This document shows, one piece after another, positions 57,252 through 64,000 of a stretch of DNA of 64,000 nucleotides. This DNA is from a phage, in the sequence record OZ346158.1. One strand, 5' to 3'. A model generated the notes under the pieces. It made no database searches and was not told the DNA's origin. It saw nothing but the letters and a program-made list of their open reading frames with translations. Numbering within the stretch: position 1 is the first letter of the stretch; every line of letters starts with the position of its first letter. Position numbers and translations under genes: made by a program.

Positions 57252-57806
57252 ATGAAATACTTTGTAACAAGCGACACACACTTTCTCCACCAGCGGGTCA
57301 TGGAGTTTGATTCATGTCAAAAACACAGATCTCAGTATGATCACAATCTTGACAGTATGAATGCGGGAATCATCGCCGAATGGAACTCTGTTGTGTCACC
57401 TGCAGACACTGTGTTCCACTTGGGAGATATTGCGTGCACTAATGATAAGAATATCAACAACTTACTTCCAGATATTCTAAATATGTTGAACGGACATATT
57501 ATTCTTGTTCGTGGCAACCATGACACACGGACGACTGTCAGAATTATGAAAGAGTTCGGTCATGAGGTTGTAGATTATTACGAGCTTCGCCACAACAAGA
57601 ATTTGATCTGTATGAGCCATTACCAATTTGCAAAGTGGAACAGAAAGCCTCACGGATCAGTCCAACTGTTCGGTCATGCTCACGGAACCACACAACAGTT
57701 GTTTGGCAGGCAGCTTGATGTCGGTTGGGATGTGTGGGGGAGACTCTTACCATTAGAAGAGGCATACCGTATTGCAATGAGTCTTGCTATTGACAGCGGG
57801 GAGTAA
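57252..57806 (+). CDS. calcineurin-like metallophosphoesterase
   Basis: DTHF, GDI, GNHD, GHAH metal-binding motifs in order. Confidence 0.75.
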   Translation: MKYFVTSDTHFLHQRVMEFDSCQKHRSQYDHNLDSMNAGIIAEWNSVVSPADTVFHLGDIACTNDKNINNLLPDILNMLNGHIILVRGNHDTRTTVRIMKEFGHEVVDYYELRHNKNLICMSHYQFAKWNRKPHGSVQLFGHAHGTTQQLFGRQLDVGWDVWGRLLPLEEAYRIAMSLAIDSGE

Positions 57807-57853
57807 TCCCTGCTATTTTAAAGAAAATTGCCACACAAGGAGAATCAGGAGAT

Positions 57854-58204
57854 ATGAAAGATGGGGATAAGCTGCTATATCTTAAAGTCCCCCTTGAAAT
57901 ACTGTCTATGTCAAAAGTTTTGAATGACACAACTGGGGAGGTTGTTGTTCTTGACTTGTATGACAAGATCGTATACTGCTACCTGCACAACTGGTATAAG
58001 CTTGGAGGAAGTTCACGCTTCACACCCAGCACAAGGAAAATTGCAGCAGATGTTGGGATAAAGAAAACAAAAGCAGCAGCGTGCGTTAAAACTTTAGAAT
58101 GTGCAGGAGTGGTTGAAATATCCACACAAGGGAGAGGTAAAAGATGCACATTTTCCAAAGTTTTGCCACCAGAAGAGGTTATTCGAATGTCAACAACTGG
58201 TTAG
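57854..58204 (+). CDS. winged-helix DNA-binding protein (replication-initiator O N-terminal-domain-like, tentative)
   Basis: HTH segment TPSTRKIAADVGIKKTKAAACVKTLECAGVVEI; immediately upstream of iteron array. Confidence 0.5.
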   Translation: MKDGDKLLYLKVPLEILSMSKVLNDTTGEVVVLDLYDKIVYCYLHNWYKLGGSSRFTPSTRKIAADVGIKKTKAAACVKTLECAGVVEISTQGRGKRCTFSKVLPPEEVIRMSTTG

Positions 58205-58278
58205 ACCAGTAAAAACTTAAATATCTGTACTATAAGGATTCGTATGTTTTATGTTCGCTCTGGAACAGAGGTTAGTAA

Positions 58279-58361
58279 CTGTCCGTGATACGGACACTAC
58301 TGTCCGTCACGCGGACACATCTGCCCGTAATACGGACACTAACTGTCCGTGATACGGACAC
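58279..58361. repeat. Four tandem about 21-bp palindromic iterons (consensus cTGTCCGTgatACGGACAc)
   Basis: Copies at 58279, 58300, 58321, 58343; each has 7-bp inverted arms with a 3-nt spacer; followed by AT-rich tract 58362-58490. Confidence 0.85.
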
Positions 58362-58864
58362 ATAAAGAATATAACTAAAATAACTAAATAATAAAAAATA
58401 AAAGATCTAGTACTTATGGTACTAAGTACATATACTTAACTTATGTAGAATATACTAGATCCTAAGTACCATGTTTTAAATTTATTACTTACTATGGGTA
58501 GTGTCGGCCCTTCATTGGCACTCGCCTACGAGGGGCGAGATGCCGGGCCTCCCTGGTGCACACAATAACAGAAGTGCATACATGCAGGTCTGGTAACATG
58601 TGTGGGAGCGAAGCGATAGCGCAGGCCAAAGGCCGAGCACTGATGTGGACCACCGACGAAAGCTTGCCAGCGCCGTAAGGAGTCGGTTGAGAGTCTCCCG
58701 CGCGAGCTTGGATGAAGTTTATGTGTGGAAACGGACAAGAAGGCCCCTAAATCGCTCCACAGCTATATAAACTATACCAGGTAAGGCAATCGCACCAGTT
58801 TGATAGAAAAGCTCGTTACAAAGCGATACAGTGAGTTTTTCTATAACTTGAAGAGGAGGTAGTT

Positions 58865-59443
58865 ATGAGTCCACGCAAAGATGACCGTGAAAAGATTGCA
58901 AAACGTTATCAGAATGAAGAACAGATGGAGAAAACTTTCAAGTGGAAGCCAGGTTTCCAGCGTAATCATTCTAACGCTCGTGATCGTAAGCATCCGGATA
59001 AGTGGTTAACACCGCCAAATGATGGCATTCAGGTTGGTGATGAGAAGGAGCTGTCACCTGGAAAAGATGGCAACTACATTCGAACTAAGGAAGCAGGTCC
59101 AAAGGATGACAGCTATCTTGTAGATAAGGTTCTTGACGGTGTTGATGTAGGTGTTGACACTGTACGAAACCTTTTTCTTGGTTGGTATCGCACAGGGTTT
59201 TTCGACATCAAGGCTATTCGTCGTGTTTGTGATATTAAAAAGTCTGCCTACGATGATGATTCCCTACATCGCACTCTGAGACAATACTCAGAGAGATACG
59301 GTCATCCAGTTATCACTCTTGACGATATTAACGAAGTTATGTATCATGTAGAGGTTGTTGCAGGTAGGTTCGGTGATGCATATCTCGGTATTCTCTCTGC
59401 AAAGGATGAGGTAATGTTAAATAAGATTTACTATGAACGCTGA
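58865..59443 (+). CDS. hypothetical protein
   Basis: Strong SD gaagaggaggtag. Confidence 0.55.
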   Translation: MSPRKDDREKIAKRYQNEEQMEKTFKWKPGFQRNHSNARDRKHPDKWLTPPNDGIQVGDEKELSPGKDGNYIRTKEAGPKDDSYLVDKVLDGVDVGVDTVRNLFLGWYRTGFFDIKAIRRVCDIKKSAYDDDSLHRTLRQYSERYGHPVITLDDINEVMYHVEVVAGRFGDAYLGILSAKDEVMLNKIYYER

Positions 59444-60307: not shown

Positions 60308-60646
60308 ATGGCGGATACAACTAAAAAGCGTCGCCGTAGAGGCAGACCTCTGAAAGAGGAGTCCAACGCCATTCAGCTAGAGAAGAACATCCTTGATATG
60401 AAGGAATCTTTTATAGCGATGGTTCCAGAAGCTCACAAAGTTTTAAGAGAGCTGATGTTGGACCCGAAAACCAAACAAAATATTCGTCAAAGCATTGCAG
60501 AGTATGTTCTTGATAAGGCAGACCGAATGCAGGAAGAATATGATGAGATGTTTGGTGAAGAGGAAGAGGTGGTAGTAGAAGAGGCTGAAAAACCAGCACC
60601 TTTTATGCCATTCACCACAGAAATACAGCCTGTTGGCAATAGTTAA
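60308..60646 (+). CDS. basic-N-terminus/acidic-C-terminus DNA-binding-like protein
   Basis: KKRRRRGRPLKE followed by acidic tail; SD aatggaggaaac. Confidence 0.5.
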   Translation: MADTTKKRRRRGRPLKEESNAIQLEKNILDMKESFIAMVPEAHKVLRELMLDPKTKQNIRQSIAEYVLDKADRMQEEYDEMFGEEEEVVVEEAEKPAPFMPFTTEIQPVGNS

Positions 60647-61211: not shown

Positions 61212-61308
61212 GCTAGGTAAGCCCTTTGGCAAGGGCGAGGATTTTTAATCCTGAAAATAGACGAGGTAGTCGTTGAATACATAGGTGGTTCGATTCCATC
61301 ACCTAGCA
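61212..61308 (+). tRNA. atypical tRNA-like gene (possible tRNA-Lys UUU with about 30-nt variable region)
   Basis: Perfect 7-bp acceptor gctaggt/acctagc, D-arm gccc..gggc, T-loop ttcgatt; anticodon arm imperfect; 97 nt. Confidence 0.4.
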
Positions 61309-61315
61309 CCTTTTT

Positions 61316-62375: not shown

Positions 62376-62659
62376 GAGTTGCTACACTGTTTATTGTGTG
62401 CTTGTTATTATGTGGGTGTGCAACCAGCGTTGAGAGAGAATACAAGATTGACCCTCCTGATGTAGGAAGGTTGATTGTTAAACCCCCGGAAGGTGCCATG
62501 AAACCACCTGCTAAAGCTATGCCTTTGAAGAAAGGTGCGCCAGATGCAGTGAATTCTGGCATTATGAGGGATAATAATCTGTCTTGTAGCAATGATAGAG
62601 CTAAATTGATCATTTTGCAAGACTATATTAGAACACTTTTTCCAAAGGAGAGAGGTTAA
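62372..62659 (+). CDS. o-spanin (Rz1-like outer-membrane lipoprotein)
   Basis: Lipobox LLLCGCA, Pro-rich mature region; start overlaps i-spanin stop. Confidence 0.65.
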   Translation: MRVATLFIVCLLLCGCATSVEREYKIDPPDVGRLIVKPPEGAMKPPAKAMPLKKGAPDAVNSGIMRDNNLSCSNDRAKLIILQDYIRTLFPKERG

Positions 62660-63084
62660 TGTCTAAGATTTACGGACCGTGTTCTGAAAAGCAGAAGATG
62701 ATCCTAGAAAACGATGCAGATATTTTGGTAATCGGCGGTGCCGCAGGGTCTGGCAAGTCGTTCCTCTTGCAATTGATGCCACTTAAAATTATTGATGACC
62801 CCCACAGCTCTGTGGTTATGTTCCGAAGAACAACCCCACAGTTGGAAGGTGAGGGTGGATTATGGCCTAAAGCAGTAGCTATTTATAGTGATCTGCCTGA
62901 AAACATTAAGCCAAAGTTTAGAGAGAAGGATCATAAGTTCATTTTTCCACGGTTTGATCCGAACACTGGCAAGTGGGATAGAAGCAAAAAGGGAGCTGTT
63001 GTAAAATACTGCCACATGGAGTATGTACAAGATAAGCTTAACCATCAGGGGCTTGAGTACACCATGGTTTGCTTCGATGAGGGT
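62659..63084 (+). CDS. terminase large subunit, exon 1 (ATPase N-terminus)
   Basis: Walker A GGAAGSGKS, Walker B MVCFDE then G-stop at intron border. Confidence 0.8.
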
Positions 63085-64000
63085 TAATTTGTAGCTCTCG
63101 TAAAACCTCCCTAATTGCGGGGAAATCTTTATTATTGACACCACCAACCTGTCATGGTAACATGACAGAGGCTTCGAAGAGAGATCGAAGGTATGGTAAC
63201 AGTGTGTTAATTTAGATAATCCGCAGCGAAGCATCCGAGAGGATGAACGTTCAACGACTAGTCGAAAGACGTAGAATCAAGCGATTCGAAACGGGAGGGT
63301 GAATGTGTAATACTAAGAAATGTATGGATTGCCAAAGAGTTCTACCTATTGATGATTTCTTTTTATCATCTAAGAGCAAGGATGGATACTCAGGTACATG
63401 CAAGGAATGCTATATGTACTACAGGAAGGGTGGATCTCGTAAAAACAAAAATATGGTTAAGAGAGATGATGCAGCATTGTTTATTCAAGACTTGCTGAAG
63501 AAAGGTGAACTTTTTGAATGCAAATCTTGTCATGAAAGTATGCTCGCTGATAGTTTTTACACAAAACGTGACTATGGTAAAGTATATCTGGTTACGAACA
63601 GGTGTAAGATGTGTGAAAAGTTTTATCAGATTGAGAAGAAATTTCACATAACAAAAGATGAATACTATCGTCTACTCTCAGATCAAGATCATAAGTGTGC
63701 CATTTGTAGAATATCCCTTGATGAGTATAGGACGCAAGGGTATAGAGATTTCTTTTGTGTTGATCATGACCATAAAACTGGTGCTGTAAGAGGGTTGCTT
63801 TGTGATAAATGCAACAGAGCTTTAGGTTTCTTCCAAGAGGATGAGGAAACTATTCTTAGAGCGGCAGAGTATTTACACATTCATAAGATATAGTCTGGTC
63901 TGCATGGAGACATGCAGCTGCCTGAAAATGGCGGGGCAAGACTAGCGACCTTGCCCGAACATAAACGACACAATTCGAATGGGAGCAGATAGACTACCTG
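63085..64000 (+). mobile_element. Group I intron in terminase large subunit gene (3' end beyond window)
   Basis: P-like aattgcgggga (63106), Q-like aatccgcagc (63220), R-like gttcaacgactagtcg (63250); contains endonuclease ORF; shares the 15-mer taatccgcagcgaag with the polymerase intron. Confidence 0.7.
63303..63893 (+). CDS. intron-encoded endonuclease (Endo VII / HNH-like)
   Basis: Zinc fingers CMDCQ..C and CVDHDHKTGAVRGLLCDKCN core. Confidence 0.8.
   Translation: MCNTKKCMDCQRVLPIDDFFLSSKSKDGYSGTCKECYMYYRKGGSRKNKNMVKRDDAALFIQDLLKKGELFECKSCHESMLADSFYTKRDYGKVYLVTNRCKMCEKFYQIEKKFHITKDEYYRLLSDQDHKCAICRISLDEYRTQGYRDFFCVDHDHKTGAVRGLLCDKCNRALGFFQEDEETILRAAEYLHIHKI

Follow-up and report, generated by a model that had tools for sequence, protein, structure and literature searches.

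The closest described counterpart of the phage locus analyzed here, a gene for a 116-amino-acid (aa) winged-helix protein followed by four DNA repeats and an A+T-rich tract in sequence record OZ346158.1, is the replicon of the Vibrio cholerae satellite PLE. The PLE initiator, RepA, whose N-terminal domain is available as PDB entry 4RO3, is a RepA_N-class protein that binds semi-palindromic iterons at the PLE origin; PLE replication takes place only when ICP1, a phage with Pol A and helicase-primase of the T7 type, infects the cell, and it is expected to require ICP1 gene products (Barth et al., bioRxiv 10.1101/639039). The PLE replicon, comprising initiator and origin, is swapped as a module between relatives, and the ICP1 origin-directed nuclease, Odn, consists of the same DNA-binding domain fused to a GIY-YIG-type nuclease (PMC8263062). 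RepA_N plasmids are theta-replicating, occur mainly in Firmicutes, and encode initiators with genus-specific C-terminal domains (bioRxiv 10.1101/639039). Staphylococcal members of this class (pTZ2162 and pSK41 RepA; PDB 5KBJ, 4PT7, and 4PTA) bind semi-palindromic iterons as dimers, a likeness that we propose for the present locus. In the staphylococcal RepA_N plasmids, the origin lies inside the rep gene. The origin of phage lambda lies inside the O gene, where four dyad-symmetric 18-bp repeats are spaced 20, 24, and 23 bp apart, and transcription from an early promoter upstream passes through it. Among related lambdoid phages, the initiator varies together with its repeats. The primary origin of T7 is an AT-rich region past promoters that is used by a replisome of Pol A and the gp4 primase-helicase. 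Transcription from promoters of the phage RNA polymerase activates the T7 origin, which has neither iterons nor an initiator protein.

The window, by which we mean the whole 64,000-nucleotide stretch of OZ346158.1, is a portion of a Vequintavirus (rV5-like) genome of ~136 kb. Escherichia phage AlexBoehm (Bas56) shares 99.8% identity with its segment 57000-59500, and more than 110 other rV5-like Vequintavirus phages share 95-99%; genome-wide scans were carried out on the window together with AlexBoehm 1-80000, which represents the remainder of the genome. The rV5 replisome is of the T7 type, combining a polymerase of the Pol A type with a gp4-like primase-helicase, and the rV5 reference paper states that the replication origin could not be defined and that skew changes merely track transcription (PMC3606486). 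In the CRISPRi-ART papers, the rV5-like phage EdH4 was used for single genes only and not genome-wide. We propose, with a probability of roughly 55%, that the locus is an iteron-type replication origin of Vequintavirus whose minimal initiator consists of a DNA-binding domain only and serves a T7-type replisome, and it is the best candidate so far for the unmapped origin of rV5-like coliphages. Public records label the 116-aa open reading frame (ORF) either 'putative transcriptional regulator' or 'replication initiation protein', and a few of them mark the repeats, without comment, as 'repeat_region'. The second of these gene labels was thus already known, and an iteron origin is a familiar kind of element; what is new is a first origin proposal for rV5-like phages and an initiator candidate that is unusually reduced.

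An earlier interpretation made from the letters alone, here called the sequence-only reading, had described a helix-turn-helix protein gene of 116 aa, four repeat copies 21-22 bp apart, and about 130 bp of AT-rich DNA with gtactta/taagtac palindromes, and this description held up throughout. The ORF was confirmed at 57854-58204 on the plus strand. The array occupies 58279-58361 and begins 75 bp past the stop codon of the gene, from which it is separated by a 74-bp spacer (58205-58278). It is made up of four 19-bp semi-palindromes, cTGTCCGTnnnACGGACAc, for which our repeat search gave start-to-start spacings of 21, 21, and 22 bp: iteron 1 at 58279-58297 (CTGTCCGTGATACGGACAC), iteron 2 at 58300-58318 (CTGTCCGTCACGCGGACAC), iteron 3 at 58321-58339 (CTGCCCGTAATACGGACAC), and iteron 4 at 58343-58361 (CTGTCCGTGATACGGACAC, the same sequence as iteron 1). 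With up to three mismatches allowed, TGTCCGTNNNACGGACA matched the window seven times against 1.27 matches expected, a count that was reached in 0 of 100 shuffles. The four array sites account for the matches with 0-1 mismatch, and the other three matches each carry three mismatches. Sites with two or fewer mismatches were absent outside the array in the rest of the genome (AlexBoehm 1-80000 scanned). Repeat number differs among natural isolates, being 2, 3, or 4, and the differences always come from the loss of whole units of 21-22 bp.

Several further observations concern the repeats. The exact motif was present in 104 IMG/VR stretches, which we judged to be about chance level, and a contig with three motif copies (L090) proved to be an unrelated GC-rich phage with intergenic hairpins. 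The word GTGTC, one of the recognition sequences of the T7 gp4 primase, is found on the minus strand of each repeat (58293-58357) and again at 58501 on the plus strand; we did not use these words as evidence. Three short metagenomic contigs stop within or just past the array (L119 1-1839, L120 1-3519, and L128 1-1392), and by coordinate arithmetic GenBank MG065672.1 breaks ~4 nt ahead of the first repeat. Contig ends at the array are likely to have a simpler cause, namely repeat-number polymorphism in mixed samples.

Directly after iteron 4 lies a tract of 135 bp (58362-58496) with 80% A+T. Its first 41 bp (58362-58402), which adjoin iteron 4, are 93% A+T with 29 A on the top strand and form a candidate DNA-unwinding element. 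The remaining AT-rich part (58403-58496) holds two GATC sites and inverted repeats: GTACTTA at 58410-58416 is matched by TAAGTAC at 58423-58429 and 58463-58469, and a 9-bp inverted repeat, GATCTAGTA / TACTAGATC, is located at 58404-58412 / 58453-58461. As a single-strand hairpin, the palindrome of the AT tract was not significant (z = -1.2). We computed a nearest-neighbor profile of duplex stability over the window and AlexBoehm 1-80000 with window sizes of 40, 60, 100, and 130 bp, and found that 58362-58491 is the genome-wide minimum at all four sizes, the least stable 40-bp and 60-bp windows of the genome falling at the A-rich 58362-58402 tract. At 130 bp, the tract reaches -134.5 kcal/mol, the runners-up being -144.8 (window) and -147.5 (rest of the genome), with a mean of -172.3 and a standard deviation of 7.0. 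The tract also contains an oriC-type 13-mer on the minus strand, GATCTTTTATTTT (58395-58407), the sole exact match in the window to the Escherichia coli consensus GATCTnTTnTTTT; one match compares with 0.12 expected per 64 kb, but it carries limited weight because this test was chosen after the tract had been seen. Neither the DnaA box TTWTNCACA nor the IHF consensus was found in 57800-58900, and the locus lacks the DnaA boxes beside 13-mer repeats that mark DnaA-dependent origins of the oriC type.

The 116-aa protein encoded at 57854-58204 is a candidate iteron-binding initiator, equivalent to the N-terminal domain of RepA_N proteins and PLE RepA without a C-terminal domain. The relative of known structure closest to it in sequence is PDB 4RO3, a significant match (E 7.4e-6 with a single sequence, 2.8e-6 with a profile), and the N-terminal domain of PLE RepA is likewise closest by fold. 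Structure prediction from five near-identical sequences was unusable (pLDDT 45), and with 70% and 27% homologues added it reached pLDDT 80; the predicted structure has the extended winged helix and N-terminal beta-hairpin of the RepA_N / DnaD-N class. PHROGs assigns the protein to phrog_12838, 'replication initiation protein', and other initiator families match it less strongly. Its Pfam matches are DUF6945 (E 2.3e-5; 24.9 bits under a cut-off of 28) and HTH_36 (22.8 bits under a cut-off of 25). The protein matches initiators in sequence and fold over its full length; regulators align only to a core of 64-87 residues. According to the sequence-only reading, the helix-turn-helix region resembled the N-terminal domain of lambda O. 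This resemblance proved weak: the Pfam scan returned no Phage_rep_O (PF04492) at E <= 10, PHROG families labeled 'replication initiation O-like' matched marginally (E 0.026-0.14), and the nearest relative was PLE RepA. At the level of sequence, kinship with lambda O is not detectable, and the protein belongs by descent with PLE RepA and the RepA_N fold class.

Searches for distant relatives reached little beyond the genus. In tblastn against 50,697 phage records, the protein matched Vequintavirus only. HMMER against 1.84 billion representatives gave 10 matches, of which 3 were spurious repeat proteins and the others generic proteins with HTH_36 or DUF6945; no further distant homologues came from NCBIfam, IMG/VR, plasmids, or GTDB genomes. 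A protein combining GIY-YIG with DUF6945, an Odn-like architecture, was among the remote matches.

The phage records searched confine the gene, the repeats, a GC-rich element that follows them, and the downstream 192-aa gene to Vequintavirus, where the cassette was found in 119 of 119 records. We compared substitution rates as mean pairwise differences in ten genomes, using third codon positions of three neighboring genes as the reference. The repeats differ by 0.027 (half-sites 0.022, central 3 bp 0.069), the A-rich tract by 0.031, and the remaining AT tract by 0.037, as compared with 0.10-0.13 for the third-position reference and 0.145 for the 74-bp spacer, which evolves at the neutral rate. 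The repeats and AT tract thus change 3-5 times slower than synonymous sites, a rate that indicates purifying selection on both.

An exchange of the module became apparent in a sister lineage, here called type B, represented by at least 10 contigs of 107-139 kb and one IMG/VR contig. Nucleotide homology to type B (83%) ends at 57816 and starts again at 58503, and the flanking proteins are 84-92% identical, so that the part replaced in type B consists of precisely the gene, repeats, and AT tract, the candidate module at 57817-58502. In place of the 116-aa gene, type B has a 143-aa homologue (27% identity, E 5e-7), and in place of the repeats, 5-6 different semi-palindromes (TCTGATRCA..TGYATCAGA) with spacings of 33, 21, 34, and 22 bp, the first of which overlaps the stop codon of the 143-aa gene. 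The type-B A-rich tract abuts the same GC-rich element. A 70%-identical variant retains both the TGTCCGT..ACGGACA repeats and the residues of helix 3 (KKTK) and the wing (RGKR), which differ in the type-B 143-aa protein. Judged from these comparisons, protein and repeats appear to behave as a cognate pair, and the gene, repeats, and AT tract as one exchangeable unit. PLE replicons behave likewise in being exchanged as a unit. The same is true of lambdoid O-ori modules.

Outside these lineages, Klebsiella phage KB57 (a Mydovirus) and a Seunavirus were tried as carriers and rejected, as the module is not conserved in them and KB57_101, the gene in the equivalent position, is not homologous. KB57 has a divergent intergenic region (L009 2445-2640) with 2-3 copies of a different, 24-bp semi-palindrome, TCTAATTATTCCCGAnnAGGAATA, spaced 24 bp apart and followed by AT-rich DNA in which GATC palindromes and repeats of ACTAACTTATSAT occur; this region may be a counterpart of the present locus that is served by a different binding protein. 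A complete Vequintavirus genome from cattle feces has been deposited in PLSDB as a non-mobilizable E. coli 'plasmid' (CP057073.1; 137,565 bp), which could reflect a carrier state or contamination.

Transcription of the locus appears to start upstream of the module gene. A sigma-70-like promoter on the plus strand (57790-57819; TTGACA-18-TATTTT with TG) lies just ahead of the 116-aa gene, is the sole such site near the locus, and carries no repeat; the module boundary at 57817 falls within it, and the type-B gene has a promoter-like site with an 11/12 match at the equivalent place. Between 58205 and 58864, we found no promoter-like or terminator-like sites, and no sigma-70-like promoter was found over or after the type-B array. 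Consistent with this, rV5 Table S4 lists no promoter in the equivalent of 58205-58864, the nearest being P081 at the divergent switch and P075 downstream (PMC3606486). The array is thus probably read through by early transcription and does not lie on the gene's own promoter. On a larger scale, both the main divergent strand switch and the lowest point of cumulative GC skew are 1.5 kb away from the locus, and forks starting from the locus would be co-directional with transcription both ways, which is compatible with an origin. Because skew tracks gene orientation, we did not use the skew change near the locus as independent evidence.

Together, these features suggest how an origin at this locus could work. 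The 116-aa protein would be made early from its own promoter and, as a dimeric extended winged-helix protein of the class of RepA_N and PLE-RepA N-terminal domains, would bind the four semi-palindromic 19-bp repeats as dimers. A spacing of 21-22 bp would place the repeats on one face of the helix, so that the bound DNA would be bent or wrapped. Supercoiling and read-through transcription from upstream could then help to open the adjoining A-rich tract, and the T7-type gp4-like primase-helicase and Pol A might load onto the separated strands unaided by any dedicated loader. Such loader-free entry would account for the missing C-terminal recruitment domain.

Set against the described systems, the locus shares part of each. 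PLE depends on a helper, ICP1, with the T7-type replisome that rV5 encodes itself; however, PLE is a satellite whereas the rV5-like element resides in the phage genome, PLE has three repeats of ~30 bp whereas the rV5-like locus has four of 19 bp, and PLE RepA continues into a C-terminal domain whereas the 116-aa protein stops after the winged helix. With respect to the RepA_N / PLE-RepA family, then, the fold is present and the host- or replisome-specific C-terminal domain is absent; semi-palindromic iterons are present and look cognate, since they change or stay along with helix 3 and the wing. With the staphylococcal RepA_N initiators, the 116-aa protein has no detectable sequence similarity. 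The likeness to lambda is one of anatomy: four repeats of similar length and spacing (19 bp, and 21, 21, and 22 bp, at the present locus) are directly followed by an A-rich tract of ~40 bp with its A's on the same strand and then by a palindrome. The lambda-type layout claimed in the sequence-only reading was therefore borne out as far as iterons and an A/T-rich tract are concerned, the latter being the stability minimum, but not in the initiator family, as a Phage_rep_O domain is lacking, nor in the placement of the origin, the array lying past the stop codon instead of inside the gene, nor in a loader-recruiting domain. Lambda O has 299 aa and a C-terminal domain that recruits P-DnaB, whereas the present protein is 116 aa long, with no obvious P-like loader. 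T7 shares its replisome type with rV5, but unlike T7, rV5 encodes no RNA polymerase. Because membership in the lambda type fails on three points, and the C-terminal domain and Pfam cut-offs of the RepA_N / PLE-RepA family are missed, we regard the locus as a variant of the iteron-origin kind that is a member of neither family.

A number of findings weigh against an origin. All Pfam matches of the protein are below gathering scores, and RepA_N (PF06970) was not matched in that scan. The protein amounts to a DNA-binding domain and one short helix, ending after the winged helix at residue 116, when all characterized RepA_N, PLE RepA, and lambda O initiators have a further domain. One phage genome has just two repeats, and in type B the repeats and the A-rich tract are ~190 bp apart. 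The AT tract is conserved in sequence, beyond its composition, which a plain unwinding element would not require. The locus is ~60 kb away from the replisome genes. Finally, the module is limited to Vequintavirus and one sister lineage; Mydovirus and Seunavirus are without it, and it is therefore not the ancestral origin of the subfamily.

Of the competing explanations, transcriptional control survives best, although we consider it unlikely. The 116-aa protein would then be a repressor or activator, and its four sites an operator array that acts either as a roadblock to read-through from the early operon or on a non-sigma-70 promoter in the AT tract, from which the GC-rich element and the 192-aa gene would be transcribed. 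The regulator label in many records and the similarity of the winged-helix core to MarR, ArsR, LexA, and CodY regulators agree with such a role, but the restriction of these alignments to the core, next to full-length matches to initiators, argues for the latter. The array is situated within a transcribed operon, between two genes and without a terminator, and conservation of the AT tract is what would be expected of a promoter; the lack of any sigma-70-like promoter over or after the array, here, in type B, and in the rV5 table, speaks against this, even if the late promoters of rV5 have been only poorly defined. A repressor and its operators would be equally expected to co-vary, as the protein and repeats do. 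A repressor would, however, have only one cluster of sites in 136 kb, and that cluster adjoins the least stable DNA of the genome. The specific alternative raised by the sequence-only reading, a four-site operator for an autoregulatory repressor, lost ground, since the array is downstream of the gene, its own promoter is upstream and free of repeats, and no promoter-like site was found in 58205-58864.

An accessory or competitive replicon seems improbable to us. Here, the locus would be a laterally acquired cassette that acts as a second origin, as a copy-control or 'handcuffing' site, or in interference with co-infecting relatives or satellites bearing the same repeats. Such a role is conceivable because the module is restricted to one genus and a sister lineage and is exchanged as a cassette, and because ICP1 Odn employs the same DNA-binding domain for interference directed at an origin (PMC8263062). 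The Odn-like GIY-YIG and DUF6945 protein among the remote matches, the lack of a recruitment domain, and the variation of repeat number among isolates fit as well. In contrast, the occurrence of the cassette in all 119 Vequintavirus records and the strong purifying selection on it suggest a core function, and scans of the genome for repeat motifs and duplex stability turned up no other origin-like element, though no systematic search for one was made.

A pac site had to be weighed because Vequintavirus DNA is circularly permuted and headful-packaged according to PhageTerm (PMC8407724; PMC13211470) and no small terminase was recognized among the scanned neighbors; the small winged-helix protein would be the small terminase subunit and the repeats its headful-packaging sites. 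A physical DNA end could also explain why three short metagenomic contigs end in or just past the array. Small terminases bind repeated sites via helix-turn-helix domains, as in lambda Nu1 and SPP1 G1P, a precedent that we counted for this explanation. We nevertheless regard a pac site as very improbable, given that no terminase family in Pfam or PHROG matches the protein, its best relatives are initiators, the large terminase gene (starting at 62659) is 4.4 kb away with seven tRNA genes and the lysis genes intervening, long type-B contigs pass straight through their arrays, and repeat-number polymorphism explains the contig breaks more simply.

The proposed origin is flanked by a conserved GC-rich (56%) non-coding element of ~300 nt on the plus strand (58497-58800), the core sequence of which is kept when the module is swapped. 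In a genome that is otherwise AT-rich, the anchors around this region are exactly 349 nt apart in each of 10 genomes, and indels are absent. It has neither a conserved ORF nor codon periodicity, and it matches no Rfam family. Folding of the single sequence gave z = -2.4, and RNAalifold found almost no covariation, with a positive (unfavorable) covariation term. A strong hairpin, GGCACTCGCC-TACGA-GGGGCGAGATGCC, is present at the start of the element (about 58516-58545), and a 13-bp stem (58803-58844) stands directly ahead of the ribosome-binding site of the 192-aa gene. The element may belong to the origin, or it may be a leader or a hitherto undescribed non-coding RNA.

A fuller version of the origin proposal brings these components together, and we advance it only tentatively, as the whole combination is possible but doubtful. 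An initiator reduced to its iteron-binding domain would open DNA purely through the wrapping of phased repeats beside an unwinding element, and a self-loading primase-helicase of the T7 type would enter without a loader. Initiator, repeats, and unwinding element would form a swappable specificity cassette, of which at least two types exist in nature, and the invariant GC-rich 300-nt element would supply the other half of the origin, shared between the types, for instance as a non-coding RNA or as a priming or R-loop region.

Coliphages of the rV5 type have been isolated widely and are under development for biocontrol and therapy, and the locus offers a specific origin candidate of ~690 bp for them. 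If the origin proposal is correct, iteron binding of the RepA_N / PLE-RepA type would serve the own genome of a large virulent phage, beyond plasmids and satellites, and the 116-aa protein would be the smallest such initiator, bearing on how RepA_N proteins pass the origin to the replisome. The two naturally exchanged cassettes would be ready-made controls for swaps of specificity, and the locus could become an engineering part, for example in infection-dependent shuttle replicons or origin-directed interference.

Some genes further downstream deserve mention. A 112-aa protein (60308-60646; phrog_3330), which is basic at its N-terminus (KKRRRRGRP), helical in its middle part, and acidic at its C-terminus, is small-terminase-like by eye, a resemblance that no family backs. 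In the seven-gene tRNA cluster, ARAGORN called a 99-nt 'tRNA-???' with a four-base anticodon (atcc) at 61212-61310; Rfam scored it at just 35.5 bits, and public records give it as tRNA-Lys or tRNA-OTHER, or omit it. The large terminase ORF that starts at 62659 is only 142 aa long; its homology to the AlexBoehm gene, which is uninterrupted, extends to 63083, and a 196-aa ORF with HNH / endonuclease-VII-like motifs follows at 63303-63893. The arrangement of this region (62659-63893) suggests that a homing endonuclease or an intron has inserted into the terminase gene of the OZ346158.1 isolate.

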